Source of the DNA: an uncultured bacterium
GTDB taxonomy: Bacteria > Armatimonadota > Abditibacteriia > Abditibacteriales > Abditibacteriaceae
Direction of reading: 5' to 3'
Assembly (NCBI GenBank): GCA_963843795.1
Contig: CAWJLW010000006.1
Span: 744,001-808,000 of the forward strand
DNA length: 64,000 nucleotides
The notes beneath the pieces are model-generated. The model saw only the letters and a list, made by a program, of their open reading frames with translations. It made no database searches and had not been told where the DNA came from. Below are positions 649-62,272 of this stretch, piece after piece; position 1 is the stretch's first letter, and every line of letters begins with the position of its first letter. A program made the translations under genes and the position numbers.

Positions 649-672
649 CGCCCTGCAAGTACTTGCAGGGCG
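649..672. repeat. 24-bp perfect palindrome centred on GCAAGTACTTGC
   Basis: CGCCCTGCAAGT|ACTTGCAGGGCG between ffh and rpsP. Confidence 0.9.
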
Positions 673-691
673 GAATACGCAACCTTTTATT

Positions 692-2047
692 CTATCTCAT
701 TTTACCTAAAGGGTTAAAGTGCCGGGGCACTTTCATTTTACCATTAGCCATCGCGCTCATCTGGCGCAGCATCTTACGCATATCACGAAACTGGCCTAAA
801 AGACGATTCACATCTTGCACGCTCGTTCCCGAACCTGCGGCGATGCGGCGTTTTCGACTGCCATTAATGATTTCCGGATCGCGGCGTTCTTTAAACGTCA
901 TCGAGCGCACAATCGCTTCGACGCGACCCAGAGCCTTTTCGTCGATATTCAAGGCGCCGCCGCCTTGTTGCGCCATCATTTTGCTGGCTCCGGGAATCAT
1001 GCCGAGCAAATTTTCCAGCGGCCCCATTTTTCGCACTTCTTGCATTTGCTGCAAAAAGTCGTCGAAATCGAAGTTGCCTTCGCGCAACTTCGCTTCCATG
1101 TGCTCGGCCTGCTTCTGTGTGATCGAATGTTCGGCCTTTTCAATCAAGGTCAAAACATCGCCCATTCCCAAAATGCGCCCGGCCATGCGGTCGGGATGGA
1201 ACGGTTCGATAGCGTCCAGCTTTTCACCCAGGCCAACAAACTTCACGGGCACGCCCGTGACCGCGCGCACCGATAGAATTGCGCCGCCGCGCGCATCGCC
1301 ATCCAATTTGGTTAAAACCACGCCGGTCAGCGGCAGGATTTCATTGAAGGCTTGAGCAGCATTGACCGCATCCTGACCAGTCATCGCATCCAAAGCCAGC
1401 AGAGTTTCGTGCGGTTGTGCGACTTCATGCACGCGACGCACTTCTTCCATCATCGCTTCATCGACGTGCAGGCGACCTGCAGTATCGAGAATGACCACAT
1501 CGTGCGCGTGTTCGCGCGCGTATTTAATGCCCGCCTGCGCGATTTGCGCGGGCGGGGCTGTCCCCATTTCAAAGACCGCCGCGCCGATTTGTTTGCCCAC
1601 CGTTTGTAATTGCAAAATCGCGCCGGGACGGTAAATGTCGCAGGCTACCAAGAGTGGTTTTTTGCCATCGCGCTTGAAAATACCAGCGATTTTGGCGGCA
1701 GTTGTGGTTTTTCCCGTGCCCTGCAAGCCAGCCAGCAGAATAATGGTTGGTGCTTGCGATGACCAGTTGAGGCGATGAATTTGTCCGCCCAGAAGTTTGG
1801 TCAGCTCGTCGCGCACGATGGCGATAACTTGCTGATCGGGCGAAAGCGATTCGAGTACGTCGGCACCGATAGCGCGCGCGCGCAAATTGGCGACGAATTC
1901 TTTGACAATTTTAAAGTTAACGTCAGCTTCGAGCAGCGCCAAACGCACTTCGCGCAGGGCAGCGTCTACATCGGCTTCGGTGACGCGCCCTTTGCCGCGC
2001 AACTTTTGAAAGGTTTGCGAAAGTTTTTCTGAAAGACCGGAAAGCAT
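692..2047 (-). CDS. ffh: Signal recognition particle protein Ffh
   Basis: GLQGTGKTTT, DTAGR, TKLDGDARGG and a Met-rich M domain; start reassigned to MLSGLSEKL at 2047. Confidence 0.97.
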   Translation of the reverse strand: MLSGLSEKLSQTFQKLRGKGRVTEADVDAALREVRLALLEADVNFKIVKEFVANLRARAIGADVLESLSPDQQVIAIVRDELTKLLGGQIHRLNWSSQAPTIILLAGLQGTGKTTTAAKIAGIFKRDGKKPLLVACDIYRPGAILQLQTVGKQIGAAVFEMGTAPPAQIAQAGIKYAREHAHDVVILDTAGRLHVDEAMMEEVRRVHEVAQPHETLLALDAMTGQDAVNAAQAFNEILPLTGVVLTKLDGDARGGAILSVRAVTGVPVKFVGLGEKLDAIEPFHPDRMAGRILGMGDVLTLIEKAEHSITQKQAEHMEAKLREGNFDFDDFLQQMQEVRKMGPLENLLGMIPGASKMMAQQGGGALNIDEKALGRVEAIVRSMTFKERRDPEIINGSRKRRIAAGSGTSVQDVNRLLGQFRDMRKMLRQMSAMANGKMKVPRHFNPLGKMR

Positions 2048-2203
2048 AAGCACACAGTGTAGCAAGTACTTGCACTGCAAATAATTCGTTTTTCGGCCCG
2101 TGCAAAAATGTTTCGGAACGCGCAGGGAAAAGTGTGCAAGTACTTGCACAACAATTTGCGCTGTGAAAACTCCAAAATCGTGTAACAATACCAACACTCG
2201 ATT

Positions 2204-4306: not shown

Positions 4307-4331
4307 TGCAAGTACTTGCAGGGCGAAATCA

Positions 4332-4574: not shown

Positions 4575-7500
4575 ATGCCAATTTCCATCGAAGCCAACCA
4601 TCCGGCGCTCCATGAATATTACGCGCATCTTGCCGATTATGCGCGCTTAAATATCACGACCGAACAATCGACGCGCGTGGCGTTTCAAACTTTGCTGCTT
4701 TCGTTTTCTAAATCTGCCGAGTGGACTTTGGAAGCCGAAGGGCGTTTGAGTTCGGGCAAGCGGCCCGATGCCACGCTCAAAGATAAATGGGGTTTGCCGC
4801 GCGGTTGGTGGGAAGCCAAAGACGTTCACGATAATCTCGATAAAGAAATTGCCCACAAAAAGCAGATCAAATATCCGCTGCGCAACACGATTTTTGAAAA
4901 CACCCAACAAGCGGTGCTTTATCAAAACGAGCGCGAAGCGGCGCGTTATGATCTGACCAAACCGCAGCAAGTCGCCGATTTGCTGGCGCGCTTTTTCAAT
5001 CACACCGACGAAGAAATTGAAGAATATCATGTCGCGGTCGATGAATTTGAAGCGCGCATTCCGACTTTGGCGAACGCGCTCAAAGCCATCATCGAAAGCG
5101 CGCACGGCGAAAACCTCAAGTTTCGCAACGCGTTTCTCAGCTTTCACGAAATGTGTCGCGGTTCGTTGAATAAAAACATTTCGCAGGGCGCGATTGAAGA
5201 AATGTTGGTGCAGCATCTTCTCACCGAGCGCTTGTTTCGCACGGTTTTTGAAAACCCCGAATTTCTCCATCGCAACATCATCGCGCGCGAAATCGAAAGC
5301 GTGATTAACGCGCTCACCAGTTCGTCGTTTAGTCGCCGCAGTTTTCTGGCGCAGCTCGATTCGTTTTATAAACCCATCGAAAAATATGGCGCGCGATATT
5401 TCCGATTGGAGCGAAAAACAAAGTTTTCTCAACGCGTTATACGAGCGCTTTTTTCAAGGTTACAGCGTGGAAACCGCCGACACGATGGGCATCGTTTACA
5501 CGCCGCAGCCGATTGTCGATTGGATGTGCGAAAGCGTGCAGCAAGTACTTGCAGACGAATTTGGCACCAGCTTATCGACGCGCGATGTGAAAATTCTCGA
5601 TCCGTGCACCGGAACCGGAAACTTCATCGTGAATTTGCTGCGTCGCATTGATGGCAGCGCGCTTGAAATACAAATACGAGCACGATTTGTTCGCCAACGA
5701 AATTATGCTGCTGCCGTATTACATCGCCAGCATGAACATCGAACACGAATTCTGGGAACAAGCGCAGCAATACGCGGGCTTTGATGGTTTGTGTTTCGCC
5801 GATACGCTCGATTTGCAGGAAACCAACCTGTTTTCCGAAGCCAATACCGACCGCATCGCGCGCGAAAAAGGCGCGAAACTCACGGTGATTATCGGCAATC
5901 CGCCGTATAACGTCGGGCAGAAAAACGAAAACGATAACAACAAAAATCGACCTTACGAACAATTGGACAAAAGCATTCGCGCGACGTATGCCAAAGCCTC
6001 GAAAGCGACCAATAAAAACGCGCTCAGCGATGCTTATGTGCGATTTTTCAAATGGGCGAGCGAGCGTTTGGCGCGCAACGAAAACGGCGTGATTTGTTTT
6101 GTCACCAATAATTCGTTTATCGACCAGATTGCGTTCGATGGTATGCGCAAGTACTTGCAGAGCGATTTCGACCTGATTTATCATCTCGATTTACACGGAA
6201 ACGTGCGCAAAAACCCGAAATTATCGGGCACGACGCACAATGTTTTCGGCATTCAAGTCGGCGTCGGCATTACGATTTTAGTGCGCAATCCGCAGCGTAG
6301 CGAAAAAGCCATCAAGTATTTTCGCGTGCCCGAAGATTGGAAGCGCGTGGAAAAAGAAGCGTTTCTCGAAAAAAGCCAAAACGTGAACGGAATCGAATGG
6401 CAAACGCTGACGCCCAACGCGAAAAATGCGTGGCTCACCGAAGGTTTGCAAGACGATTTTGATTCGTTTCTGCCAATCGGAACGAAAGACGCCAAAGCCT
6501 CGAAAGCTGCTTTCACTAAAGATGTCAAAGCAATTTTCAAAAGTTACAGTAACGGCGTCAAAACGAACCGCGATGAATGGGTTTATGCCTTCAATCGCCA
6601 GACTTTAGAAAGTGATGTGCAACGCTTGATTGCCAATTATAATGCGGAAGTTACGCGTTGGTTGGCGCGCGACAAGTCGCAAGTACTTGCAGTAGATGAT
6701 TTCGTTGACAATGACGAAACGAAGATTAAATGGAGTCGAAACTCTCAAACAAAATTTGCTGCGTGCGAAACGCGTAGTTTTTGCCGCAAACAAAATTAGA
6801 GAGTCTCTTTATCGTCCATTCTCTAAACGGAATCTTATACTACGACCGAATTTTGAATGAGCGCGTTTATCAGATGCCCGTGGTTTTTGCACTGGCAAAA
6901 AATGAATGTAGAAAATCAAGTAATTTGCCTTAGTGGAGTTGGTAGCAATAAACCTTTTCACTGTTTGATGACAAATCAGATTCCTTGTCTTGATTTGTTA
7001 GAAAAAACACAATGTTTCTCGTTCTACGCTTACGACAGAGGATGGGACTTACTGCAAGGACAATATCACCGATTGGGCGCTGCAACAATTCCGCAATTTT
7101 TATATATCAAATACCCCCACGCATGTGTCAATAAATAAGCGAGACATTTTTCATTACGTTTACGCGCTGTTGCATCATCCGAGCTATCGCGCGAAATACG
7201 CCGAAAATCTCAAACGCGAATTGCCGCGTTTGCCCTTGCTGGGCGACGCCGACAGTTTTTCGACGCTGGCTTCGCTGGGCGCGCAACTGTCGCAACTGCA
7301 TTTGAATTACGAAAGCGCGCCCGAATATGCGCTGCGCTGGGTGGAAAGCAAACCGTTTTCGTGGCGCGTGGAAAAGATGAAATTCACGCCCGACAAAAGC
7401 GCGCTCATCGTCAATTCGTCGCTCACGCTGGCCGATATTCCGCCCGCCGCGTTCGATTATCGTCTGGGCAATCGCAGCGCTCTGGAATGGATTGTCGATC

Positions 7501-7655
7501 AATACCAAATCAAAACCGATAAACGCAGCGGCCTCACGTCCGACCCCAACCGCGCCGATGACGAAGAATACATCGCGCGCCTCATCGGTCGCATCGTCAC
7601 CGTGAGCGTGGAAACCGTGCGCTTAGTGAATGAATTGGAAGCAGTGAAATTGTAG
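4575..7655 (+). CDS. Fused restriction-modification enzyme (N-terminal PD-(D/E)xK-like nuclease, N6-adenine methyltransferase, Type ISP-like C-terminus); frameshifted in this sequence
   Basis: Consecutive ORF pieces: RPDATL..WEAK; GIVYTPQPIVDWM and LDPCTGTGNF (motif I); IIGNPPYN (motif IV); GVKTNRDEWVY; DIFHYVYALLHHPSYRAKYAENLKRELPRLP; YRLGNRSALEWIVDQY. Frame breaks near 5385, 5663 and several within 6740-7125. Confidence 0.85.
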
Positions 7656-7822
7656 GGCGCGGGTCTCTGACCCGCCCTGTTCCAATCCCACAAACGTCCA
7701 TCGAATAACGCAAACCATCGTAGGGCGCGGGTCTCCGACCCGCCCATGTTGTGCACCACAAACGTTCATGCGATAAATGTTTGTGGGATTGGAACAGGGC
7801 GGGTCAGAGACCCGCGCCCTAC
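7652..7822. repeat. REP cluster upstream of the RAYT gene (3 copies)
   Basis: REPs at 7652-7677 (+), 7720-7745 (+) and 7797-7822 (-); 7652-7695 and 7779-7822 form a perfect 44-bp inverted repeat. Confidence 0.92.
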
Positions 7823-7847
7823 GATGGTTCGCTGCGATATTTTGGAA

Positions 7848-8357
7848 ATGATTATGGTTTACAATCCCGATATTCATCATCGTCGTTCGATTCGCTTCAA
7901 GGGTTAAGATTATTCAAATGCGGGCGCATATTTCGTGACGATTTGTGTTTATCATCGCGAAATGTTGTTGGGCGAAATCGAAGATGGCGAAATGATTATC
8001 AGCGAAATTGGCGCGATGGTACAGGAAAATTGGGATTTTCTGCCGCAGATTCATCCGCATTTCGCATTAGATGCTTTTGTCGTAATGCCGAATCACGTTC
8101 ACGGAATTGTATTGCTCCACGAACAGGGCAAATCATTATCGGAAATTTTGCGCGGTTTCAAAACTTATACAGCGCGGCAAGCCAATATTCTGCGCGATGC
8201 CATCGGTAATCCATTCTGGCAGCGCAATTATTTCGAGCGCATCATTCGCGACGAACGCGAATTGCTCAACGCGCGCCGATACATCCTTGAAAATCCGCAA
8301 CGCTGGCCCGACGACCGCAATCATCCCGACAATATAATTTCTCCGAAAACATTGTAG
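7848..8357 (+). mobile_element. REP-associated tyrosine transposase (RAYT/TnpA-REP, Y1 HUH family) with an in-frame TAA at 7905-7907
   Basis: YNPDIHHRRSIRFKG*DYSNAGAYFVTIC...FVVMPNHVHGIV...FWQRNYFERIIRDE...YILENP; flanked by REPs on both sides. Confidence 0.9.
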
Positions 8358-8460
8358 GGCGCAGGTCTCCGACCTGCCCTTGTTAATTACAAATCACGTT
8401 CATCAATGAACGTTTGTGGTGCACAACATGGGCGGGTCGGAGACCCGCGCCCTACGATGG
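8354..8460. repeat. REP doublet downstream of the RAYT gene
   Basis: REPs at 8354-8379 (+, with a compensatory stem change GCAGG/CCTGC) and 8430-8455 (-). Confidence 0.92.
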
Positions 8461-8504
8461 GTTTTGTCAAACTATTCGCTGCAAGTACTTGCAGGAGGCG
8501 CACG

Positions 8505-11637: not shown

Positions 11638-12017
11638 AATGTTATAGATTTGTCCTATGTTTACAAATACGATATTTGTGGAATCAAGTACAGGTGCGTG
11701 CAAATCGCAGGCATTTGAAAGGTCTTGCAGCAAGTACTTGCAGCAGCACAATCACCCTTTGCTTTTGTAACGGGAAAACAGTGTGGCAGTTCGTGACCAA
11801 CCTTGCAGCTATCGAGAGTTTAAAAAGCAGTGCGCACTGTCAATCGCGCTCAAAGAACCGTTTCGAGCGCTCATTTAGTGATGTTCTTCAAGCGCTGCAG
11901 CCATCTGCCATTTTGGGCGTGCAAAAATTGTTGTCGTGTATTAATTGCACGTTGGCAGAACTGTCCGGCTCTGCGAACCGACCGTCGGTTTGCCGAAATG
12001 CGATTTCGTAATTTTTT

Positions 12018-15239: not shown

Positions 15240-15285
15240 ACAAACGCCCTGCAAGTACTTGCGCAAGTACTTGCAGGGCGTTTGT
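15240..15285. terminator. 46-bp perfect palindrome containing two tandem GCAAGTACTTGC, between convergent genes
   Basis: ACAAACGCCCTGCAAGTACTTGC|GCAAGTACTTGCAGGGCGTTTGT just after the stop at 15236. The terminator role is inferred. Confidence 0.65.
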
Positions 15286-17292: not shown

Positions 17293-17498
17293 AAAACAAT
17301 GAGGAAACAGTGATGAATGAGGGCAGATAAACTGTGGCGCAGCTACTTGGCAAGTACCCGCAGCGCATAGCGCGCCTCAGAGCATAACGCATCGCTAAGG
17401 ATTTTGCAGCGTTTTTGTGTCAAAATTCTTTGTTGTGCGAACCCAGAAGCTCCTGCAAGTACTTGCAGGGTCTTAAACGTCGGAAAAGGAGACAGACA

Positions 17499-20614: not shown

Positions 20615-20646
20615 ATTCTGCACTGCAAGTACTTGCAGTGCAGAAT
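20615..20646. repeat. 32-bp perfect palindrome centred on the iterated motif (possible terminator)
   Basis: ATTCTGCACTGCAAGT|ACTTGCAGTGCAGAAT shortly after the stop at 20595. Confidence 0.85.
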
Positions 20647-35688: not shown

Positions 35689-35720
35689 CCAATGCGAGTT
35701 ATTGAGACGCTCGCTTTACC

Positions 35721-40804: not shown

Positions 40805-40875
40805 ACGGTTTGATTTAACATTGCAAGTACTTGCAGAGCAGTTTGGAAATTGTCACGTTCTAAAATTCTAAAATA

Positions 40876-41835: not shown

Positions 41836-41893
41836 AATGTGCATTGCAAGTACTTGCAGCATGCTGTCGGTGAAGTAGAGAAGCGAAAGCGAG

Positions 41894-42608: not shown

Positions 42609-42652
42609 AACCCCAAAGCCCGCTGCAAGTACTTGCAGCGGGCTTTGGGGTT
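42609..42652. terminator. 44-bp perfect palindrome centred on the iterated motif, between convergent genes
   Basis: AACCCCAAAGCCCGCTGCAAGT|ACTTGCAGCGGGCTTTGGGGTT followed by a T-rich tract. Confidence 0.75.
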
Positions 42653-46289: not shown

Positions 46290-46362
46290 AACGTTTGACC
46301 GAGCAGTATTTTGTGTAACAGGCGCAGTGTGCCACAACAGGTCCCGATGACGCTGCAAGTAC

Positions 46363-46392
46363 TTGCAGCACGATTGAATTTTGCATTACAAT
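46363..46392 (+). promoter_or_regulatory. Putative sigma70 promoter for the candidate retron ncRNA
   Basis: TTGCAG (46363-46368, overlapping the iterated palindrome), 18-bp spacer, TACAAT (46387-46392). Confidence 0.45.
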
Positions 46393-49900: not shown

Positions 49901-50211
49901 TTAGCGAAAGTGGCGATGCATACAATCAAGCGTTCGTCGCGCAGCAGTTGGAGAAACGCAGGGCAAACTTCGATACTGCGGAATTTGATAAAGCGGTGCT
50001 GAAAAGTCGCGGTCGCGCGCGTCAAGCAAAAAACGCTGTGCAAAAGCGCTTGTCACACGAACTCGATAGCTCGATGAACGTGGAAGCTCTGCTTGAATTG
50101 GCGCGTGGACGCGTGCCTCGCGACCGCGAGTGGGCCCTGCAACAATTGGCGCGTCTAGCGCAAAATGGCACAAACATCGACGGCGTTGAGCTGGTTTCAC
50201 CCAAAGCGTAA
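46981..50211 (+). CDS. Large (about 1076 aa) hypothetical protein, probably helical-repeat; retron-associated
   Basis: Long uninterrupted ORF rich in Leu/Ala/Trp with no recognisable catalytic motif; first gene of the RT operon. Confidence 0.75.
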   Translation: MTSAEIHALVERFESLNSNERAILLDWARTVSLHYGAWQPFKRLYKTLDTRALDGKNELSSDEIASLAAMMGRLDTATIAQSGPRLQAIELPEQNWPAKRAKWNGLTLFVSGRTRYDWKGWRLLVAEDAGQSRWSESFSTLRRLAGLSANALGPQNESDKIKNIRAAWDFNARDYIGQVEKIELNGDILTIQCAYGGRGAQFTVDISDPAFPHLATSAPKPATWQYMKRRVRRLLRELSANQPSRYWALLKALLHESAELQSDGSINPESQWALMWALYGNGTRWAQKGPGRGAYRLQANSLKWQRTRREEMHPEIWNAHLDEMRDLSLNETVPVQANLIALQVLAAANQEWPALSSTQALRFLNSDVLWLKSLATRVIGKRWLAGERVSGALAAATILLANAPLRRQLQLSLENVLRGTDKKWCGEFMAQALETLKFNPKNRRGRLAAHYLALHGRDTVSNDNLFAYLGLWLELSKQSANWALERVRQAGAQGEASRLAAIAALPEGQCEQALAAFLERAGETNPTISQAWEQVSCEERARNEVGWRYLEATGIESTVLRELWKRLLNGWYDEDIFAPAFGSSAGANLFLRANWQVKDVADWFKNYYSGWTKMQPHLSVEFARAVMSFVPKDEIAHRIFNALPKLKAEAAPQIAEAFFDRARDFSPTAQEIRNSILTVGASWPYTPSAPEAMAATWRFLEASAVTEVVLQEVWQQLFAPNQIRDHVAPAIALLRRANLSEDQIEKWLQSSPDLATMFTPNFFGALFSLCSGAGKVALAVGATPEQWCAVRPLLLRVLDNVNLRVSFWKSIWEQLRENAESLQERLLSDSEILATFVLLDNAAVAEMMATNEDAHAPLLGRWLDAHHDELMRDDVALIAAATCPLPPIRERGLARVREIGLDLPLALRLIESNLPPAMELAQEWFQKTETGIEAETELALALCDSPQAAVRAWGRNFVTQRADRLLNSALLKNLSESGDAYNQAFVAQQLEKRRANFDTAEFDKAVLKSRGRARQAKNAVQKRLSHELDSSMNVEALLELARGRVPRDREWALQQLARLAQNGTNIDGVELVSPKA

Positions 50212-50340
50212 AGCACGCTATGCGTAAAGTGTTGAGCAAGTACTTGCGAGCGGTCACGAATCAGTTTTCGTTTCAAATAGCACTTTAAATAGCACTCTGC
50301 AAGGGCCTGCAGAACCAGCCTGTTTACAAATGGTTATTCA

Positions 50341-52326
50341 ATGGAAATCACACAATCGTACGCGAAACCCTCAAGCGCCGCGCCCCGTGGTGAAGGCACG
50401 AACTTTTCGCTTTCAATTCAATCCGAGCGTCCGCCGGTTGCGCTGCAAGCGCTGGTTCTGGATAGCTTGAGTTACGCGCGCGCTATGCTTGCTTTGCACG
50501 AAGTTGTGTCAGGCGATTTGCGCTTCAAGGAAAAAGATCACAGCGCGTATCAAACTTGGGTGCAAGGCCAATATCTTCAAGAACTCGACGCCGTCGCGGG
50601 CGCGCGTTTACGCGCTTTGCCGGGCCAGCACGAGCAATTACAGCGCGTGCGTGAGGCGATGGCACCGCTGCAGAAGCGCGAGCGCGAATTGTATCGCGAC
50701 TATGATGGCGGCGATATGCGGAAAGCCAAAACGCGCTATTGGAAGTACTTGTATACGCACAATAAGGCGTTGTGGTGGCTGCTCGATCCTGTGGTTTCCG
50801 TGCATCCCGATAGCGTGATTTTTGAAGTGTTTTCACAAGATGAATCGAGTTATGGCCGCGTAACCGTTCCGATGGAAAAATTGGATACCATTGGCGAAAC
50901 CGTGTTCGGGACGACGAATGTCGATTTTTCGCAGCGTTTGGCCGATGAATTCAAGCGCGTGCGCAATTATCGTCCGGCGTTTCTGGAAATCGGCGGTGGT
51001 GGCGTCGCGGTTTCGACTTCAGCGGGCACGCAATTCGAGAAAAAAATTGACTTGCCTCCTTCGTGGGTGCGCGGCTTTTTGCAAGTGCAAAGCGCATCAA
51101 GTTTGCCAGGCGAAACCGTGATTTTATCATCAGCAACTGTTAGCGAATTGTTGCTGGTAATGCGTCAACGACGCGAAAAAGGTGGACCGCGCTCGCTGCG
51201 CTTCAAACTGTCACCAAATCAAAAGCCGATCATCGAAATCGAACCGTGGAACATCGAAATTTCAGAGCCGACGCAAATCTGGCAGGGCAGTGGGGCGCAG
51301 GAAATTCGTATCTGGGGCCGTCGTCGTTTGTTCGTTTTAGAATCGCTATTGGCGCACGCACAAACCGTGCAAATCAAGCTCTTGGGTAGCGGAATGCCTT
51401 CCTACTGGAGTGTCGAGCAGGGTGAAGGAGGTCATCGTTTTGAGCTAGGTTTGAGCGGTTGGACAAAAAATGATTGGTCGGGCGCAGCGCGTTTTGACTT
51501 GTTGGCTTCGACGCAAGAAGTGACTGAAGGCGACGTCGAACTAGCTGCCACTCAGTTACAGAATGAATTGAAAATTACGCCCGCCGAACTCGCTCAACGC
51601 AGTGATTTATCACAAAGCAGCGCGACCGGTGCGCTTCAAGAGTTGTGCAAGCAAGGACGCGCGATGTACGATGCGACGCAGGGCGCGTATCGCTGGCGTC
51701 AATTGTTGCCATTTCCAGCGCCCCAAAGCGAAGAAGATAGCCGTCTGGCTGCAGCCAGACGCTACGTACAGCAGAGCGCGGTGAAATGCAAAGAGATCAC
51801 CAATTCGGATGGTTTAAGCGAGTTTTTAGAGCATCAGCTTCAAGACGGCGCGCGCTTGTTCGAGGCGAGCGTAAAAACGACCGGTGGCACGTTCTCGCCG
51901 ACCATCGGTTTGGACGCCGATGGTCGTGCGCGTTTCGCGCAATGTACCTGCGGCGAATTCCGGCGCGATAAGCTGCGTAAAGGCCCGTGCGCGCATATTC
52001 TGGCGGCGTGCGTTATCGCGGCGCAAATGCAAAGCGCTAGCGCGCAGCCAGTCGACCGTTTCAAAGGCCAGACATGGGTTTTTACGGGCGCTTTAAGCTT
52101 GTTCACGCGTGAGCAGGCCGAAAAGCTCATTACCGATGGTGGCGGCAAAGCTAGCGGCAGCGTATCGAAAAATACAACGTATCTGGTAGTCGGTGAACGC
52201 GCTGGCTCGAAATTGGACAAAGCCAAAGACTTGGGTGTGCCAGTAATAACCGAAGCACAATTCGGGCAAGTCCTTGCGGGCAAAGATGTAGCAGCGGTGG
52301 TGCAATCGAGCGAGGCGAAAGCATGA
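50341..52326 (+). CDS. SWIM zinc-finger protein with a C-terminal BRCT domain; retron-associated
   Basis: CTCGEFRRDKLRKGPCAH matches SWIM CxCx(n)CxH. FKGQTWVFTGAL...REQAEKLI..GGKASGSVSKNTTYLVVGERAGSKLDKAKDLGVPVITE resembles a LigA-type BRCT domain. Confidence 0.88.
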   Translation: MEITQSYAKPSSAAPRGEGTNFSLSIQSERPPVALQALVLDSLSYARAMLALHEVVSGDLRFKEKDHSAYQTWVQGQYLQELDAVAGARLRALPGQHEQLQRVREAMAPLQKRERELYRDYDGGDMRKAKTRYWKYLYTHNKALWWLLDPVVSVHPDSVIFEVFSQDESSYGRVTVPMEKLDTIGETVFGTTNVDFSQRLADEFKRVRNYRPAFLEIGGGGVAVSTSAGTQFEKKIDLPPSWVRGFLQVQSASSLPGETVILSSATVSELLLVMRQRREKGGPRSLRFKLSPNQKPIIEIEPWNIEISEPTQIWQGSGAQEIRIWGRRRLFVLESLLAHAQTVQIKLLGSGMPSYWSVEQGEGGHRFELGLSGWTKNDWSGAARFDLLASTQEVTEGDVELAATQLQNELKITPAELAQRSDLSQSSATGALQELCKQGRAMYDATQGAYRWRQLLPFPAPQSEEDSRLAAARRYVQQSAVKCKEITNSDGLSEFLEHQLQDGARLFEASVKTTGGTFSPTIGLDADGRARFAQCTCGEFRRDKLRKGPCAHILAACVIAAQMQSASAQPVDRFKGQTWVFTGALSLFTREQAEKLITDGGGKASGSVSKNTTYLVVGERAGSKLDKAKDLGVPVITEAQFGQVLAGKDVAAVVQSSEAKA

Positions 52327-53765
52327 GCGACGAGCAAAAGACCAAGGGCAAGGAAGAATGGCGCACTCGCTACCAACAGTTGGGCAAACGCGCTTTTGAA
52401 CTGGAAGAAATGGAACGGTTGGGCTTCTGGCCGCCCGACGAGGAAACGCAACAGCGAACCGAAGCCGTGCGCCGCGAACTGCGCGAAGTTCAAAACAAAT
52501 TGGCTCCGCTGCGGAAAGAACAGCACGAACTGGAAAAAGCGATTTCCGAGAGCAGCGACATTGCCGCGTTGCTGGCCGAAGTGCGCTCGCGGCGCATCGA
52601 GCGTGTGAAAGCCGAACGCGCGATTCGCAAAATGCGTCGCACCGAAAAAGCTGAACAAAAAGCCGAAGCTGACCGAAAATGGCGTGAGAAAAATTTGCCG
52701 CATCTGGGCCGCGATGTTTCACAGGGCTTGCAATATGAAGGCGGTTCGGATGACAAGCTGCAAGTACTTGCGCTGCCACTTTTGCACTCAGCGGAAGAAA
52801 TCGCGGCTGCGATGGAAATCGAAACCCAGAATCTGGCGTGGTTGTGCTATCATCGTGGTGCGTCGAAAGTCGATCATTACGTACATTTTTCAATTCCCAA
52901 GAAAAGCGGTGGGCTGCGTTCGATTTCCAGCCCCAAAGCGCAAATGCGTGATGCGCAAAGCTGGATTTTGGAAAATATTCTGCAATCGGTGCCGATTCAC
53001 TCCGCCGCCTTTGCGTTTCGCAGGGGAATTAGCATCGCCGACAACGCGCGCTTCCACGCCAGATGCGCGGTCGTTGTGCGTATCGACTTAAAAGATTTTT
53101 TCCCTTCTATTACTTTTGGGCGCGTGAAAAATGCGTTTGTGGGTTTGGGTTACAACGAAGGAGTGGCCTCGATTTTCGCACTCATCTGTACCGAAGCGCC
53201 GCGGTTGGCATTGCGCTTGGATAGACAGATTCACCACGTGGCTTTGAGCGAGCGTTTTCTGCCGCAAGGCGCGTGCACCAGTCCCGTGTTGACCAACATT
53301 TTGTGTCGCCATCTGGATGCACGCATGACTGGCGCGGCACAAAAATTAGGCTTCACTTATTCGCGTTATGCAGACGACTTAGTGTTCTCCAGTGATAATG
53401 AGCGCGCCAATATCGTGGGTTTGCAGAAGTTGGCATCGCTCATTGTCGAGCAGGAGAATCTGCAAATCAACGCTGCCAAAACTTCCATTATGCGCCCGCA
53501 TTGCCGCCAGAGTGTGACTGGGTTGGTTGTGAACCGGGCCGATGGCGTCAACGAAATTCGCGTTTCGCGACGCGACTTGCGGAAGTTTCGCGCTTTTTTG
53601 CATCGCTACGAAACGTTGGGCTGCGAAGTGTTGAGCAATCAAATCGGTCAAGACGCTCTCAGTTATGCGCGCGGCTATTTATCCTTCATTCACATGGTCA
53701 ACGCAAGTCAAGCCGCACAAATTCGCTCTGCACATTCATGGCTGGAATCGCCAGAAAGTACTTGA
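52323..53765 (+). CDS. Retron-type reverse transcriptase with a long charged N-terminal extension
   Basis: IPKKSGGLRSI, NARFH (region X), DLKDFFPSI, LPQGACTSP, YSRYADDL, QSVTGLVVN (region Y); ATGA overlap with the upstream gene. Confidence 0.93.
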   Translation: MSDEQKTKGKEEWRTRYQQLGKRAFELEEMERLGFWPPDEETQQRTEAVRRELREVQNKLAPLRKEQHELEKAISESSDIAALLAEVRSRRIERVKAERAIRKMRRTEKAEQKAEADRKWREKNLPHLGRDVSQGLQYEGGSDDKLQVLALPLLHSAEEIAAAMEIETQNLAWLCYHRGASKVDHYVHFSIPKKSGGLRSISSPKAQMRDAQSWILENILQSVPIHSAAFAFRRGISIADNARFHARCAVVVRIDLKDFFPSITFGRVKNAFVGLGYNEGVASIFALICTEAPRLALRLDRQIHHVALSERFLPQGACTSPVLTNILCRHLDARMTGAAQKLGFTYSRYADDLVFSSDNERANIVGLQKLASLIVEQENLQINAAKTSIMRPHCRQSVTGLVVNRADGVNEIRVSRRDLRKFRAFLHRYETLGCEVLSNQIGQDALSYARGYLSFIHMVNASQAAQIRSAHSWLESPEST

Positions 53766-53975
53766 CAAATTAACTTTCTTGCATCAAATTTATTTCTTAC
53801 AATTACTTGCAGCGAACTTTGTTCTTGTCGCACCGGCAAATCATATGTTGTCTGGAAAATGGCTCAATCGGGCCCAGTTTGCAATTCCTCAACAGGAGCA
53901 GATTTAAATAATATTGAAAGGTTATGTCCAGAATGAAATAAAAGTGCCCTGCAAGTACTTGCAGGGTTTTTGATT

Positions 53976-55054: not shown

Positions 55055-55987
55055 ATGAGGATTAGAAAACAAAAAGGTCGAAAAGCCTGCGGTTTTTCGC
55101 GGCTTGCATGGTCGCTGGGCATAATGGTGCCCGGGGCTCCGGCATTGGCAGATGCCATAAGCGCACCTGACGTTCCGGTTTTGCGTGGGCGGCTGGTTTT
55201 GAAGTCGATGCCGCTTTCGCCCATCGTCAATCGCAAAATCACGACGTGGGTTTATCTACCGCCTGGCTACGACACTGCGACCAAACGTTATCCGGTGATG
55301 TATCTGCTGCACGGACAGCCCGGCGGTTGGACGGATTGCTACCAGTCAGGGCGTGTTGAAGAAATGGCCGATAATCTTATTAGCGCTGGCAAAATGCCGC
55401 CCGTGATTCTGGTTGCTTTCGATGGCGACGGGCCAAATGGCGTTAAAGACCTCACCAACTTTTGCAATCGCATCGATGGTTATCGCACCGAAGATTTCGT
55501 TGTGCAGGAACTGGTGCCTTATATCGATGCCACTTATCGCACCCTGCCCAACGCCGCTAAGCGCGCGCTGTGGGGCTATTCTTCGGGTGGTTACGGCGCT
55601 CTTAATCTGGGCATCAAGCATCCCGCTCTATGGAGCGTCATTTGTTCGCACGCCGGTTTTTATCAGCCCTCCGATGATGGCAGAGTGATGAACAAAATTC
55701 TTGGCCCACCCGGCTCGAATTGGGACGCCAACAGCACGCTCGTCAATGTCCAAAATTTGCCCGAAAATGCGCCACTGCATTTCTACCTGAATGCCAGTCC
55801 CAACGAAGACAGTTACGAGGGTTTTCAACAATTGGTGGCACAGCTCAAGGCGCGCCATATTGATGTCGAAACCAAAGTGCTGAAAAAGGCCCATGCTTGG
55901 CGCTTGATCGTCGAAAATTGCCGCGAATCGTTGCTTTTTGCCGGCCAATGTTTCAATAATACCGCCGCGTCAGAAAAAGCGCGCTGA
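55055..55987 (+). CDS. Alpha/beta-hydrolase esterase, probably exported
   Basis: Signal-like N-terminus (ALA-D); VYLPPGY, LHG, GYSSGG, AHAW. Confidence 0.88.
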   Translation: MRIRKQKGRKACGFSRLAWSLGIMVPGAPALADAISAPDVPVLRGRLVLKSMPLSPIVNRKITTWVYLPPGYDTATKRYPVMYLLHGQPGGWTDCYQSGRVEEMADNLISAGKMPPVILVAFDGDGPNGVKDLTNFCNRIDGYRTEDFVVQELVPYIDATYRTLPNAAKRALWGYSSGGYGALNLGIKHPALWSVICSHAGFYQPSDDGRVMNKILGPPGSNWDANSTLVNVQNLPENAPLHFYLNASPNEDSYEGFQQLVAQLKARHIDVETKVLKKAHAWRLIVENCRESLLFAGQCFNNTAASEKAR

Positions 55988-55989: not shown

Positions 55990-57417
55990 TCAGCGCATCT
56001 GCGGCACGCCCATTTTGTCGAATCGCGCGTCAATGAACCGAAGCGAATCGTAGAAGTGAGTGCTCCAATATTCCCAAGTGTGGCGGCCCGGAAAAACATG
56101 ACATTCGTGGTCCATGTTTTTACTTTGCAACTGCGCGCAAAACTGCGAAAATTCAGCGCTCAACTGGTCGCTCTGTCCGATATCGGCATACACATGCAGG
56201 TTTTGCGCGGGCGAGATTTGCGCAACGGTTTTTAGCGGATTATTGGCGACCCACAGCAGCCCTTTGGGGCCAAGAATGTCGGTCATGTTATCGGCATCAT
56301 CGGCAGGATCGAAAAAACCGGTGTGTGAAGCGCCGATTTTCCACACTTCGGGATGTTTAAACATCAGATTCACTGCCGCGTAACCGCCCGCTGAAACGCC
56401 GCACAGCGCGCGCGCTTCGGGTCGCGCGATGGTGCGATAAGTGCGGTCGATATAAGGAACCAGTTCTTTCACCATGAAACTTTCCATCGGCCAACTGCCA
56501 TCAGCGCGGTCGAGAAAATTAGTGATGTCGTTCGGCCCGTTGGGGCCTTGTCCGTCCCATCCGACCAAAATCATCGGCTTGATTTTGCGCCCTAGAATCA
56601 ATTCTTCGGCGGCGTTGTGAATCTGCCCTTTGACAAAGCAATCGCGCACTTCGCCTGGCATTCCGTGCATCACGTAAACCACCGGATAACGCACGCTCAA
56701 GCGGTTGTAGCCCGGTGGTAAATAAACCCATGTGGTGATTTTGCGCTTTAATAAGGGGCTGAGCGGCATTGATTTAGGAACCAGCTTACCCGACAATTTT
56801 TCATCCAAAACCGCCGCTTCCTGTCGCGCGTGGAACCAGCGCAAATACGAAGGCCACGCCGCGCGCCCAACTGCAAACAGCACAATCGCCGCCCCCAGTC
56901 TGGCAAGTACTTGCGTGCGTCTGAGCGCCCGCTGTTGCGGCGATAACGGCGCGATTTCGACCAGCTCCCTCACGCGCAGATCGTTTTGTAAAATTGCCCA
57001 GCGTTGCCTGGCACTGATGATCCAAATTGTCAGCAAAAGAACGGCGTAAGCCGCAGTCGTTTGTTTGCTCGCGACTGATAAATCATCGCTCAGCATGAAC
57101 AGCGGCAACAGGCCCAAAATCACGCGCGGCGCGGCCAGCCACAACGTGGCGCGCGATAAGCGCGGCACCATCAGGCATAAAGCGAGCGCGATTTCCCAAC
57201 TCGCCAATAATATTCGATTGCTGTGTGGCGTCAAGCGTCCGACCGAGAGAATGCTCAGCACGCGCGAAGCGTAATCGAGCGCTGTGTTGGGCGCGCCGTG
57301 CCAGTGTGCCAGCGCGCTCCACGCCAGAATGGCAGCGATTAAGACTGCAAGTACTTGCAGACCGTGCTGCGCCATCCATCCCAAAGAACGCGCTGCTACA
57401 CGTCGAGGTTGAATCAC
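55990..57417 (-). CDS. Membrane-anchored alpha/beta-hydrolase esterase
   Basis: GTG start overlapping the upstream stop, with a GGAGG SD; N-terminal TM segments; VYLPPGY, GVSAGG, GRHTW. Confidence 0.85.
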   Translation of the reverse strand: MIQPRRVAARSLGWMAQHGLQVLAVLIAAILAWSALAHWHGAPNTALDYASRVLSILSVGRLTPHSNRILLASWEIALALCLMVPRLSRATLWLAAPRVILGLLPLFMLSDDLSVASKQTTAAYAVLLLTIWIISARQRWAILQNDLRVRELVEIAPLSPQQRALRRTQVLARLGAAIVLFAVGRAAWPSYLRWFHARQEAAVLDEKLSGKLVPKSMPLSPLLKRKITTWVYLPPGYNRLSVRYPVVYVMHGMPGEVRDCFVKGQIHNAAEELILGRKIKPMILVGWDGQGPNGPNDITNFLDRADGSWPMESFMVKELVPYIDRTYRTIARPEARALCGVSAGGYAAVNLMFKHPEVWKIGASHTGFFDPADDADNMTDILGPKGLLWVANNPLKTVAQISPAQNLHVYADIGQSDQLSAEFSQFCAQLQSKNMDHECHVFPGRHTWEYWSTHFYDSLRFIDARFDKMGVPQMR

Positions 57418-59231
57418 GTGGCCTCCACTTGGGGCGCGTCGTGGGGCGCGCCCGATTTGGCTTGCGCTCCGGGTTCGTCGTGTTCGCCCCGCAGGTGCTT
57501 CAGGAAGTCCCACCACGAATCTTGCCCCGAATCGGCGCGAATAATCGCGGCGGCGATAGCGGGCAAACCGGCTTTGCCGGCGTAAGCCAGGTAAATCGGT
57601 CGCCATTCGGGATGAAATTTTTCTTTGAACGAATGCAAACCTTTGAAATTGTAAAACTGATTGATGTGTTCATAGATAAAGTGCAGCGCCTTTTCCGCTG
57701 CGGGATCGTGGGCTTCTTCTCCCACCATGGCAAACGGGCTGGGGCCTAAATTGAACGTATCGAAACCTTCGCTTTTGGCCCACTCGAACAGCGATACGAA
57801 CAATAATTCCATGGTGCCCTTGGCGGTTTCGGGGCGGCGGCGCATTAAATCGACGGTGATTTCATTGAGATTGTAGCAACTGACAATGTTGGCAAAAGCC
57901 GTGATACTGCCGCTTTCGTCGGAAATTGCCATCACGGGGCCGTTGCGAATATATTCGTCGTCGAACCAACCCAGCGAAAACTGCTTTTCGCTGCCGTGCA
58001 TCATCGCCAGCCACTCGTCGGAAACTGCGCGCAATTCTTCCAGCAGAGCACTTGAAAGCGGCGGCGCGTGGTATTTCGCTTGATGTCCGGCTTTGGTGAT
58101 CTGGTTGGTCACGTTGCGCAGGCTCTTGCCTTCTTTACCAGCCAGCGAAAATTCCTGCACGTTCACTACGGCTTCGTGCGCGATGCGCAAAACTTCCAAG
58201 CCCGCAGCGCGATAATCGTCCAAAAGTTCGTCGTAAACTTCATAAAACGCGGGACGCCAATCGTTTTGCGCGCAGAAACCGACGAAGCCTGCAATGGCGG
58301 CGCGCGCGTCTTCGCGTGGGCCAATTGGTTCGCCCAATGCGACGGCAATGCGCCCGACTAAGGCATAGGAAATCAGCGAGCCGCCGGGCGAAAACCAGTA
58401 AATTTTATCGTCAAACAAGGCGCAAAACGCCAACGCTGTGCGCCCGTGCGCCTGCACGATTTGCCTCACGCGCTGGCGTTCTTCGTCAGCAGCGTTGGCG
58501 CGCAACATCACGGGACGCGCCAGCATCAGCAGCGCGTAGCCGAAAGTCGCGGCGGCCACGATGTAAATCGAATCGGCGAAGTAGCGTCCGAAGCCGGTGA
58601 TAGGTTCCAAGCCTGGGTTGGCAAATTCGGTAAACATGGCCAGCGTTTGTTGAAGCGCCGCGCTGAGGTTGAAGTTCACCTGAAAATGTCGATCCAGCAG
58701 ATAAAAACCGACCGTGCCGTAAGCCAGTGTGAAGGCAAAAGCCAGTGCAAGTACTTGCAGGCCGCGCTGCACCGAAGGTGCGTCCGAGCGCGCGTGAAAC
58801 TGCGCGCGCGCCAGCCACAGCCAAACCGCCAGCGCTAACGCACAAATCGCTTCTTCGTAATCTAAACCTTTGAGCAGATGCCCCAGTGCAGAGATGAGAA
58901 GCGCGACCAGCGTCAAAGCCCACGCGACTTGCTTGCGACGCCACAGGCTTTGCGCCAGCAGCAGTAGGGCGAAGCCAGCCAGAACCGTTGTGAGATGACC
59001 ACTGCGCCTCGCATCAAAGGGCAACGCATCCCAAAGTACTTGTACGCGCGCGGGTAAGCTGGGCGTTGCAGCCGACCACACATTCATCAACCCCATCAGC
59101 GCCGTCAAAATTGCTGGCACGCGCACGGCCCACAGCGCGCGCCGATGATTAACTGGCGCGGGTGAAACCGCTTGTGGCGGCGCGAAGTTAGCTTCAAAAA
59201 AATTGGCTTCAGAAGATTGAGTGTCTTGCAT
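57414..59231 (-). CDS. Aminoacyl-phosphatidylglycerol synthase (MprF synthase domain, DUF2156) with TM segments
   Basis: HLLKGLDYEEA, ALGEPIG, EKQFSLG, VDLMRR, YNFKGLHSFKEKFHPEW. Confidence 0.9.
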   Translation of the reverse strand: MQDTQSSEANFFEANFAPPQAVSPAPVNHRRALWAVRVPAILTALMGLMNVWSAATPSLPARVQVLWDALPFDARRSGHLTTVLAGFALLLLAQSLWRRKQVAWALTLVALLISALGHLLKGLDYEEAICALALAVWLWLARAQFHARSDAPSVQRGLQVLALAFAFTLAYGTVGFYLLDRHFQVNFNLSAALQQTLAMFTEFANPGLEPITGFGRYFADSIYIVAAATFGYALLMLARPVMLRANAADEERQRVRQIVQAHGRTALAFCALFDDKIYWFSPGGSLISYALVGRIAVALGEPIGPREDARAAIAGFVGFCAQNDWRPAFYEVYDELLDDYRAAGLEVLRIAHEAVVNVQEFSLAGKEGKSLRNVTNQITKAGHQAKYHAPPLSSALLEELRAVSDEWLAMMHGSEKQFSLGWFDDEYIRNGPVMAISDESGSITAFANIVSCYNLNEITVDLMRRRPETAKGTMELLFVSLFEWAKSEGFDTFNLGPSPFAMVGEEAHDPAAEKALHFIYEHINQFYNFKGLHSFKEKFHPEWRPIYLAYAGKAGLPAIAAAIIRADSGQDSWWDFLKHLRGEHDEPGAQAKSGAPHDAPQVEAT

Positions 59232-60781: not shown

Positions 60782-60835
60782 GCTGATTTGGAGATAACGC
60801 CGCGAAAACCGGCTTGCAAGTACTTGCAAGACGAT

Positions 60836-62200
60836 CTAATGCGTCGCTGCGTGCCAGCGCCGCAATTCCTCATCCAAGTGAACCGCGATTTCGCTATTGT
60901 CTCCCTCACAATTCAACATCTGCATTTGACACGGATCGGCATGCAAATCGTGAAAATAATGTGGACGGTCGCCCAATTCCGGTTTGTTTTGCCACGGCAA
61001 ACCATAAAAATGTTGTGGCGTGCGAATGCCCACGCCATCGCCTCCGGTTTCCACAAAACTTCCCGCCATTTCCAGATGCGCACGTTCGCCGCGTAAAACC
61101 GGCGCGAGGCTGCGGCCGTGAGGGTGAGACGGCACTTCGCCGCCACATAAATCGAGCAGCGTCGGCATTACGTCCACCAAATTGGCGACTTGCTCTTCGA
61201 TCACGCGCTGATTTTGCAAACCCGGCACGCGCATTATCAAGGGAATACGAATCGCTTCTTCGTTCAAGCCGCCTTTTTGCACCAACCCGTGACTGCCCAG
61301 GTTATCGCCGTGATCGGAAGTGAAAATCACAATCGTTTCTTCGCTCAATCCCTGCTGTTCTATGGCGTTTACCAAACGGCCCAAGGCGTCGTCCACCCAC
61401 GTCGTCATTCCGTAATATTCGGCAATAGCCTTAAGCAAATCGTAATCGTCCGGCAATTCTTCGGTATAAGGCAAATGGAAGCCGTAATAGCGAAAATCCC
61501 AGCGATAAACTTTGAGCCAATGTTCTTCATCTTTAATCGGCACATTGAGATCGACATTGGCGCGCAGTGGAATTTCCTCAGGCCGATACATTTGCGTATA
61601 TTTATCCGGACCATCGCTAATCGGACAGTGCGGCGGCGAGAGATTGAAATACAGAAAAAACGGTTTTTCTTCTTGAGCACGCTGGACGAAAAATTGTTCG
61701 GCGCAATCGAGTTCAAAATCAACGCTCCAGCCATCGGGCACGAATTCCGGGCCACCGTTGCGCGTGAAATGTTGTGCGCTGTGGCAATGATGCACGCGCG
61801 GAATGGTGTATTCATCGAAGCCAATGTCGTGCGGCCATGAATGAATATGCCACTTCCCGATGGCCGCATTGTAATAACCACGCTCGCGCAACAGTTCGGG
61901 CAAGGTCGGGTCGGGCAAATGAGGCCGACCGGCGAACGGATATTCCGGCATTCCCATTGCGTCTTTTGCACCCGGATAAGTAAAATTAGCCGCGCCGCCC
62001 GTACAACGGCGCGGATACTGTCCCGATAAAAGGGCCGAACGCGCCGCCATGCAAACCGGATACGGTGTGATAGCAGTCTCGAAACGCACGCCACGAGCCG
62101 CCAGCGCGTCTATATTCGGTGTGCGAATCACATTATTGCCATAGCAGCCCACTTCAAAGGCGCGCAATTGATCGCAAGTGCAAAGAACAATGTTTTTCAT
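60836..62200 (-). CDS. Sulfatase family protein
   Basis: DQLR, TPNIDALA, CMAARSALLSG, GKWH, PPH, TSDHG. Confidence 0.92.
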   Translation of the reverse strand: MKNIVLCTCDQLRAFEVGCYGNNVIRTPNIDALAARGVRFETAITPYPVCMAARSALLSGQYPRRCTGGAANFTYPGAKDAMGMPEYPFAGRPHLPDPTLPELLRERGYYNAAIGKWHIHSWPHDIGFDEYTIPRVHHCHSAQHFTRNGGPEFVPDGWSVDFELDCAEQFFVQRAQEEKPFFLYFNLSPPHCPISDGPDKYTQMYRPEEIPLRANVDLNVPIKDEEHWLKVYRWDFRYYGFHLPYTEELPDDYDLLKAIAEYYGMTTWVDDALGRLVNAIEQQGLSEETIVIFTSDHGDNLGSHGLVQKGGLNEEAIRIPLIMRVPGLQNQRVIEEQVANLVDVMPTLLDLCGGEVPSHPHGRSLAPVLRGERAHLEMAGSFVETGGDGVGIRTPQHFYGLPWQNKPELGDRPHYFHDLHADPCQMQMLNCEGDNSEIAVHLDEELRRWHAATH

Positions 62201-62224
62201 AACAATTCATTGAGTGAATAATAG

Positions 62225-62272
62225 AAAAAGCGTTCTGCAAGTACTTGCGCAAGTACTTGCAGAACGCTTTTT
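62225..62272. terminator. 48-bp perfect palindrome with two tandem iterated motifs and A5/T5 ends
   Basis: AAAAAGCGTTCTGCAAGTACTTGC|GCAAGTACTTGCAGAACGCTTTTT just past the cupin stop codon. Confidence 0.75.

Follow-up and report, generated by a model that had tools for sequence, protein, structure and literature searches.

Motif copies in the window and in the genome

The stretch of DNA analysed here (the window) comprises 64,000 nt of genome G000, a 4.30 Mb assembly in 11 contigs (92 % complete) from the family Abditibacteriaceae, and carries 41 exact copies of the 12 bp palindrome GCAAGTACTTGC between positions 655 and 62260. No copy arose in any of 100 dinucleotide shuffles of the window, which bears out the initial annotation of about 41 over-represented copies; its remark that the word is often extended also holds, since 21 of the 41 reach the longer form TGCAAGTACTTGCA. 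By our own gene calls, 26 copies are intergenic and 15 lie in genes. The signal proved to be genome-wide, as had been surmised: 2,567 copies were counted on all 11 contigs, against Markov expectations of 0.12 (order 3), 7.4 (order 5) and 57 (order 7) obtained with the exact word masked during training, and six shuffled palindromic 12-mers with the same letters gave zero occurrences each. Density was 62.9 per 100 kb on the 3.6 Mb contig and 7.4 on the poorest contig; along the main contig it ranged from 47 to 83 copies per 100 kb, with no void at the terminus.

Overall densities were 597 per Mb for the 12-mer and 754 per Mb for AGTACT. The word is tightly kept, because copies with one mismatch number just 506 (one-off variants at positions 1 to 6: 110, 40, 62, 154, 60 and 80), and the signal is the full dyad, because the left half accompanies 5,134 of 5,687 right halves. 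With 3,508 genes called, 1,790 copies were intergenic, 754 coding and 19 across a gene end; that is 70 % intergenic and 29 % in genes, or 297 versus 20 copies per 100 kb, a 15-fold intergenic excess. An Rfam scan of the window returned no match. Neither the 12-mer nor, judged by title or start of abstract, any work on palindromes in Abditibacteriaceae was found in the literature searched, with supplements and most subscription journals outside the search; AGTACT appears in PMC8919816 merely as a ScaI site.

The copies in the window are listed by position (no strand assigned); the frame of a coding copy is named by its peptide.

649-672: copy at 655 with 6 bp perfect extra arms, between co-directional minus-strand genes
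2062-2147: two intergenic copies (2062, 2136), 74 bp apart, in the divergent spacer before ffh
4308-4319: intergenic copy directly past a stop codon
5541-5552: coding copy, ASTC frame, type ISP restriction-modification gene fragment
6147-6158: coding copy, xKYLx frame, type ISP fragment
6679-6690: coding copy, xQVLA frame, type ISP fragment
8481-8492: intergenic copy 25 bp past the last GTAG-type REP (repetitive extragenic palindrome, a different element) of a REP-associated tyrosine transposase (RAYT) locus
11730-11741: intergenic copy in a divergent spacer
15251-15274: two head-to-tail copies capping a long hairpin in a convergent spacer, predicted terminator
17455-17466: copy in a divergent spacer; within a longer open reading frame (ORF) if its TTG start is used
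20615-20646: copy at 20625 with 10 bp perfect extra arms, folding into a hairpin with a GTAC loop
20679-20690: second intergenic copy, 54 bp past 20625
22349-22360: coding copy, xQVLA frame, in a PAS sensor kinase gene
25650-25673: copy forming a hairpin stem with a second copy that has two mismatches
26672-26683: intergenic copy with an ABC ATPase gene on either side
28097-28108: coding copy, xQVLA frame, in the gene for GTPase Era
28554-28565: intergenic copy, followed by a degenerate partner within a hairpin
29255-29266: coding copy, xQVLA frame
29637-29648: intergenic copy
32193-32204: copy in the divergent spacer before fabZ/lpxA
34112-34123: coding copy, xQVLA frame, lpxB
34591-34602: coding copy, xKYLx frame, lpxB
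35068-35079: coding copy, ASTC frame
37635-37646: copy in the msbA-kdtA spacer
39307-39318: coding copy, xQVLA frame, kdtA
40823-40834: intergenic copy
41846-41857: intergenic copy
42609-42652: copy at 42625, capping a 20-pair hairpin (T-rich tail) in a convergent spacer; best terminator-like match of a 20 kb scan
46355-46366: intergenic copy in a divergent spacer
48006-48017: coding copy, xQVLA frame, in a 1076-aa ORF
50236-50247: intergenic copy
52760-52771: coding copy, xQVLA frame, in a retron-type reverse transcriptase gene
53946-53967: copy at 53951, capping a terminator-like hairpin in a convergent spacer; the hairpin was called on both strands
56903-56914: coding copy, xQVLA frame, in an esterase-like gene
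57347-57358: coding copy close to the start of the same esterase-like gene
58747-58758: coding copy, xQVLA frame, in an mprF-like gene
60816-60827: intergenic copy
62237-62260: head-to-tail doublet at a hairpin tip with A and T tails

Flanks, hairpins and spacing

The initial view that the flanks are unconserved was not borne out. Beside GCAAGTACTTGC in G000, C stands at −2 in 68 % and T at −1 in 66 % of the copies, the flank is GC-rich to −6, and an A-rich patch lies at −11 to −8 (53–55 % A at −10/−9), with a weaker A patch near −18. The main patch was also seen in coding copies (35–37 % A versus about 22 %) and, at 49–51 %, among intergenic copies that lack extended arms, and recurs, weaker, at equal distance from the core in G009 and in the satellite-like contigs described below; it lies 1.5 turns from the dyad, coding copies included. 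The clear and the weak AT patch are about 10 bp apart, at offsets unlike those of the uptake signal sequence (USS) of Pasteurellaceae.

Extended arms (at least 8 of 12 pairs) were most frequent at convergent copies (72 % of 296), followed by co-directional (30 % of 1,229), divergent (13 % of 260) and coding ones (2 % of 754); the shuffled-flank control gave 35, 7, 5 and 1.5 %, respectively. Armed copies fold with GTAC as the loop, were scored terminator-like and are predicted to act in termination. The 45 head-to-tail pairs at 12–13 bp look like local duplications at hairpin tips.

Close pairs, 14–110 bp apart, showed peaks near 21, 30, 40, 51 and 62 bp in G000, with a best period of 10.5 bp (R=0.32, n=234) and unrelated intervening spacers. 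When the sites were reshuffled within their own spacers, none of 2,000 rounds reached the observed R=0.36 (null maximum 0.23); coding pairs alone gave R=0.25 (p=0.06). Coding copies lie farther from intergenic copies than expected by chance (median 1,048 versus 674±30 bp), which suggests that the benefit of a copy saturates. The coefficient of variation of the spacing in five relatives was 0.57–0.72, partly because genes space the intergenic copies.

Much of this geometry would suit the site of an abundant nucleoid- or chromosome-organising dimer that bends DNA, bridges neighbouring copies and is kept by selection on structure or expression: the dyad symmetry, the phasing across unrelated spacers, the A-tract 1.5 turns from the dyad even in coding copies, and the intergenic excess. 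The Escherichia coli SlmA site, a 12 bp palindrome with an AGTACT core, shares GAGTACTC in identical form with the dialects of G009 and G012 given below. As a SlmA site the word was nevertheless rejected: no TetR match was found in G000, the sites number in the thousands, and they are not excluded from the terminus. The single HU and the single chromosomal ParB of G000 are as in word-less genomes, and the word has been lost or exchanged in related lineages (G017 next to G012; G006), which would be hard for an essential architectural site. Peaks of pair spacing can also come from overlapping flank preferences, as for the USS (PMC1852404). We consider a nucleoid function unlikely on this balance.

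Protein footprint and origin of the coding copies

The word has left a mark on the proteome. The peptide QVLA occurs 566 times in G000, against a median of 37 in permutations (15-fold); with the exact motif codons it was counted 503 times (2.2 expected), and ASTC 132 times against 3. Compared with orthologues lacking the AGTACT word, 29 of 36 scorable coding sites showed no indel, and seven more lay outside the alignment. Orthologues in G009 and G012 offered synonymous near-misses, such as identical VRVLEM or SRVLAI encoded one or two bases off the word; at colinear sites the core was common to the orthologue in 4 of 14 (G009) and 6 of 22 cases (G012), and in 0 of 15 for G017. A second species that carries the same 12-mer has kept 6 of 10 coding sites. 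The sites fall in poorly conserved stretches, with an identity of 0.32 at the codons, 0.47 in the flanks and 0.61 per gene; uptake sequences are reported to lie in such stretches as well (PMC2817400). No empty paralogous site was found among the duplicated sites in G000, all six of which are filled. Stepwise substitution is the simplest reading of these alignments for the origin of the coding copies.

REP elements have a GTAG foot and a 20–40 bp hairpin, flank a RAYT gene and are almost only intergenic. GCAAGTACTTGC has no 5′ GTAG foot, its genic copies are biased in frame, and the sole Y1 transposase match in G000, the RAYT in the window, has its own GTAG-type REP in 36 copies; the earlier statement that the motif is not part of a MITE or REP was thereby supported, and REP/RAYT was rejected as its class. 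The RAYT gene itself (7652-8456) has an in-frame TAA near its start and five flanking REPs; the 36 REPs of the genome form mostly inverted pairs about 100 bp apart. Dispersed intergenic hairpins are what the word has in common with REP/RAYT systems and with Ssn/NTS repeats (PMC11893778). A mobile mini-hairpin resembling a REP or SDR, which a nuclease or transposase would copy or stamp into DNA, could account for the 70 % intergenic share, the doublets, the indel-flagged coding sites above background and the element of G006, a hairpin bounded by two GTAC. It is highly improbable all the same, for G006 has no Y1 match, most coding sites are colinear with synonymous near-misses, and the duplicated sites are all filled. 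The word was likewise rejected as an Ssn/NTS target, since no stand-alone GIY-YIG (Ssn-type) nuclease was found in the 92 % complete G000, where the two matches lie in frames of 672 and 450 aa.

Dialects and unrelated words among relatives

The exact 12-mer occurs in only 0–3 copies each in 40 relatives, and AGTACT in 2,813–4,733 copies in six of the 31 genomes of the class (1–1,094 in the other 25), with 1,005–1,233 AGTACT words per Mb in five relatives. GCAAGTACTTGC is one of several dialects: a GTAC-cored word with lineage-specific flanks was found in seven of the 31 genomes at about 0.7–1.2 per kb. The dialect is CCAAAGTACTTTGG in G001, WTCGAGTACTCGAW in G009, G015 and G019, and CGAGTACTCG in G012; TCGATATCGA was rejected as a dialect of G004 (60 copies). 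In G006 the word is a 24 bp dyad with two GTAC, RAGTACGGTCG-AWWT-CGACCGTACTY; 2,981 half-sites were counted, and 438 of 520 sampled (84 %) were paired. At one orthologous site GTAC is kept and the G012 flanks are exchanged for those of G006. The half-site AAGTACGGT-c-g-awwt shares 8 of 9 bases with the USS core of Haemophilus influenzae, together with its n-r-wwww tail (consensus aaAAGTGCGGTnrwwwwwnnnnnnrwwwww; PMC1852404), a likeness that may be due to chance.

Three further genomes of the 31 (G007, G016, G018) carry an unrelated, non-palindromic, GTAC-free word, CAGCCACG, in 2,676–3,503 copies (about 300 for the control). It is not strand-polarised, being present locally on either strand and in genes of either orientation, and is mostly single (84 single, 31 paired); in G016 it is extended and partly in inverted pairs. 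Words at 0.6–1.2 per kb are thus found in 10 of the 31 genomes (seven GTAC-cored, three CAGCCACG), a pattern that suggests one family repeatedly evolving such words. On a quick ComEC tree the word-less G017 is sister to G012, and groups g1 and g6 are not sisters (88–94 % SH-aLRT); the tree is compatible with a single gain followed by losses as well as with two gains.

A metagenome scan gave 57 loci, of which 13 come from a GC-richer, partly syntenic second species with the same 12-mer (13 contigs, GC 0.63–0.68, 89 copies in 216 kb). This finding, together with the cognate dialects in five other, independent genomes, the frame-biased peptides and the shared orthologous sites, answers the concern that the enrichment might be confined to one contig or be an assembly or adapter artefact; indel errors do occur in the assembly (13 of 236 orthologues change frame), and yet the chance of an artefact is practically negligible. 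No other dense carrier of GCAAGTACTTGC was seen in the species collection, in which close pairs occurred at 17 loci with at most three per genome. Actinobacterial records (L001, L004, L007, L008) have two copies 19 bp apart, and three Bacteroidota records (L015-L017) an AT-rich double site; these pairs are likely to be unrelated regulator sites. Prevotella-group records (L002, L003, L005, L006, L009, L011, L012, L014) hold the 12-mer in 22 bp tandem repeats.

Orphan methyltransferase and GTAC avoidance

The one PF01555 gene of G000 (C6:2517365-2518135) encodes a 256-aa DPPY enzyme and has no conserved nuclease neighbour. Of the 31 genomes, 22 have the gene (two of them a broken copy), and every one of the seven GTAC-word genomes is among these; G016 gave no match. 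It lies between uvrC and mutL in G009 (L492), beside uvrC in G015 (L310) and elsewhere in other genomes. The nearest solved structure is M.RsrI (E 1.6e-36); target specificity was not readable from the names or structures of homologues. Homologues with about 60 % identity come from Verrucomicrobiota, Chlorobiota, Acidobacteriota and Poribacteria; in the DNA around them GTAC ranked with the six rarest 4-mers in seven of eight sets, the exception being Poribacteria (0.81); controls gave 0.84 for Clostridia and 0.04 for Verrucomicrobia of unknown methyltransferase status. Among genomes without a GTAC word, rho(GTAC) was below 0.3 in 12 of 13 with an intact gene versus 2 of 9 without it (Fisher p=0.0015), values being drawn from 3–158 kb per genome and from kin that are not independent, with the threshold set after the values had been seen. 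The two genomes with broken copies also have low rho(GTAC). CTAG is often low too, but follows the gene less closely than GTAC. In many word-less genomes of groups g5 and g2, for example at L175-L177 and L184-L186, GTAC and CTAG are nearly absent (rho 0.0–0.2).

GTAC is therefore probably the target of a family-wide orphan adenine (N6) methyltransferase. The initial annotation had named AGTACT and GTAC as plausible methyltransferase targets, and avoidance beside the orphan enzyme supports GTAC, indirectly. The enzyme is not sufficient for a word, because most carriers avoid GTAC.

Another rival draws on this enzyme. In a methylation-directed repair ratchet (Elhai's model for HIP words, moved to N6-methyladenine), methylated GTAC in a certain flank would be read by a nicking or strand-choice factor, and mismatch repair would fix mutations towards that flank until about one site per kb is reached. 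GTAC is indeed the only part common to the seven GTAC-cored genomes, all of which encode the enzyme, and its rarity beside the outside homologues and in word-less carriers is in line with methylation. Palindromy, origin by substitution and saturation near 1 per kb are as the model predicts (PMC4390886); MutL was found in five of five genomes, and the gene order in G009 places the methyltransferase next to mutL. However, 13 genomes lack a GTAC word despite an intact gene, and in most of them GTAC is avoided; CAGCCACG is GTAC-free and occurs in G016, where the methyltransferase gene gave no match; and the GTAC positions in G000 are not the most intolerant by the variant counts above. Nor were Vsr or NucS matches found in G000, and A-tracts and phasing are not predicted. 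We consider the ratchet unlikely.

Mobile and acquired DNA

Gaps of more than 7 kb between copies number 32 in G000. Eight word-poor stretches were inspected and identified from protein starts; they comprise islands rich in insertion sequences and restriction genes, a cluster of tail-like genes, contigs that resemble plasmids and a foreign cluster for type IV secretion; one contig was mixed. The tail-like cluster (G000:C3 2634-27317) resembles contractile tails by its protein starts and is almost word-free.

Primases and helicases of phage or satellite type, an excisionase and a tape-measure-like gene were recognised on the satellite-like contigs L203, L218, L228 and L232. In their PHROG-supported genes (12.6 kb) 11 exact copies were counted, about fourfold the 0.20 per kb of host genes, and several GCAAGTACTTGC pairs on these contigs are 42 bp apart. 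IMG/VR yielded no close pairs of the 12-mer and six single matches, with no enrichment around them. Temperate phages of Pasteurellaceae gather USS with residence time (PMC6776037).

Competence genes and candidate readers

A full set of competence gene families is present: ComEC was found in 30 of 31 genomes, and ComEA, DprA and a type IV pilus cluster with PilB/T/C/D and minor pilins in G000. The pilus cluster of G000 has five frame changes, above the 13 of 236 background of orthologues; at four of the five, a lone short-read contig of low depth has a one-base difference, and the cluster is probably intact, with the changes being assembly errors. DprA was not found in G017 (84 % complete). Neither the genes beside the methyltransferase nor those in the uvrC-mutL region provided a supported reader of the word, and a partial-genome profile (1.3 Mb of word-bearing versus 1.1 Mb of other DNA) returned core genes and gave no lead to one.

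Comparison with known systems

The highly iterated palindrome HIP1 of cyanobacteria and the DNA uptake sequence (DUS) and USS, which the initial annotation had named as analogues, remain the closest ones. By analogy, the word would work like a DUS/USS with the symmetry of HIP1; it belongs to neither class, because it departs from HIP words in GC-richness, edge variants and host, and from DUS/USS in being palindromic.

With HIP1 it shares the palindrome, gross over-representation genome-wide, perhaps a frequency of about one per kb, occurrence in genes and spacers, inner 4–6 bases that are a likely orphan-methyltransferase target, and replacement or loss in some lineages. HIP words reach about 1,000–2,000 per Mb; the figures here are 597 (12-mer) and 754 (AGTACT) in G000 and 1,005–1,233 in the five relatives. 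HIP words are also 75–100 % GC, and their one-off variants gather at the first and last base (PMC4390886), whereas GCAAGTACTTGC is 50 % GC with an AT-rich core and its variants do not gather there. HIP1 is a GC-rich 5–8-mer, whereas the present dialects are 12 bp or longer. A resident methyltransferase for part of the word may have its counterpart in the orphan enzyme of all seven genomes, for which avoidance suggests GTAC as target. The host is not cyanobacterial: Ffh from the window is closest to Abditibacteriota/Abditibacteriaceae records (79–81 % identity). Unlike for HIP1, the putative mark is N6-methyladenine, with no GmeC, the species dialects surround a fixed core, terminator bias is strong, A-tracts and phasing occur, and genomes that have the enzyme but no word avoid the core.

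DUS/USS are represented by at least 1,000 near-exact copies of a 9–12 bp word, in dialects with a conserved inner core, co-opted in intrinsic terminators, over-represented in peptides with frame bias, scarce in acquired genes and accompanied by competence machinery. All of this was found here, the terminator co-option by sequence pattern and the machinery in word-less genomes as well. Neisseria meningitidis has 1,892 DUS copies, 34.5 % of them in ORFs (PMC2817400), comparable with 2,567 and 29 % for GCAAGTACTTGC. Poorly conserved residues, presence in long-resident phage-like DNA and an AT-rich flank are further likenesses (PMC2817400, PMC3458573, PMC1852404, PMC12616744, PMC6776037). The USS has two helically phased T-tracts, G000 one clear and one weak AT patch, and G006 one tract. 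DUS/USS are bound by a sequence-specific pilin receptor of the ComP/PpdA type; no such receptor was identified here, where neither of two profiled pilins tracks the word. Also unlike DUS/USS, the word is self-complementary, so that one copy instead of an inverted pair forms a hairpin tip, and it has a probable methylase core. Chi was rejected, being non-palindromic and polarised with replication, whereas GCAAGTACTTGC is its own reverse complement.

Interpretation

Whatever the explanation, it has to include a reader for about 12 symmetric bases, a per-kb benefit that saturates, stepwise gain despite the residue cost, and quick rewriting between relatives. We favour, at about even confidence, a self tag that resembles uptake sequences and is maintained by biased uptake and recombination, with HIP1-like symmetry and a methylase core. 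GCAAGTACTTGC is one dialect of GTAC-cored words present at about 1 per kb across Abditibacteriaceae chromosomes; in this mechanism a putative, probably dimeric protein would read the word during DNA uptake and recombination, word-carrying fragments would be favoured, and the word would spread. The GTAC core would be N6-methylated by the family-wide orphan enzyme, and termination would be a secondary co-option. Biased uptake with recombination explains the largest part of the data: density, dialects, peptides, poor islands, rich resident phage-like DNA, terminators and repeated new words. Of the three functions first proposed (uptake, nucleoid organisation, and methylation-directed repair or recombination), the evidence places an uptake-type drive first, with repair and nucleoid binding as rivals.

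Several observations weigh against the self tag. The families and genes searched yielded no reader of the word. ComEC, ComEA, minor pilins and the methyltransferase are present in word-less genomes too, and G005 has DprA but no word. The candidate readers profiled in the competence set, two pilins and ComEA, do not track the word. The core of USS is non-palindromic (PMC12616744), whereas 84 % of the G006 half-sites are paired; the second W-tract of the USS is missing in G006, and half of its half-sites begin with G. Strict two-fold symmetry and phasing would suit a pilin no better than a dimer in the cytoplasm, and the phasing itself was absent in the second species (n=26, R=0.06). Coding copies showed no mutual repulsion (1,722 versus 1,832±123). 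Indels were flagged at 7 of the 36 scorable coding sites, compared with a background of 7.5 %. The satellite-like contigs were chosen for their close pairs, three of them share sequence, and their host assignment is presumptive.

The uptake drive can be combined with the repair ratchet, because methylated HIP1 raises transformation in cyanobacteria (bioRxiv 10.1101/2024.09.10.611283; PMC13756078). A possible, though still rather unlikely, extension is a two-factor code for kin recognition, in which methylated GTAC would stand for ‘family’ and the flanks for ‘species’, a dimeric reader of the methylated palindrome would gate uptake or recombination, and satellites would copy the code to ride the uptake route. 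The code would have been rewritten several times, as in the four AGTACT dialects, the 24 bp dyad of G006 and the unrelated CAGCCACG. If true, it would bring HIP1 and DUS/USS together in a single phenomenon, seen here outside the cyanobacteria and proteobacteria.

Two families of proteobacteria have established sequence-specific self tags; the function of HIP1 has been open for three decades. Among close relatives in Abditibacteriaceae, words were gained, lost and swapped in nature more than once, and the candidate methyltransferase is there in some and missing in others; comparing them, together with one methylome, could tell apart uptake drive, repair ratchet and nucleoid binding. The word reshapes the proteome, its absence marks recently acquired DNA, and it can assign phage and plasmid contigs to these hosts. 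New elements are the methyltransferase link, the phasing test, the 24 bp dyad dialect and the satellite-like contigs rich in the word.

Other features of the window

The type ISP restriction-modification gene (4575-7655) is in several pieces, with three motif copies within, through decay or assembly error. In the lipid A cluster (32259-41835), fabZ and lpxA lie in one ORF, kdtA spans 698 aa and lpxK is split; indel errors may be behind some of these oddities. A 289-base A/T homopolymer at 55515-55803 (G000:C6 near 799515, approximate), the sole run of more than 20 in G000, is probably an assembly artefact. The region 46981-53765, read in one direction, encodes the 1076-aa ORF (no Pfam match), a SWIM/BRCT protein and the retron-type reverse transcriptase, and is possibly a retron defence locus.

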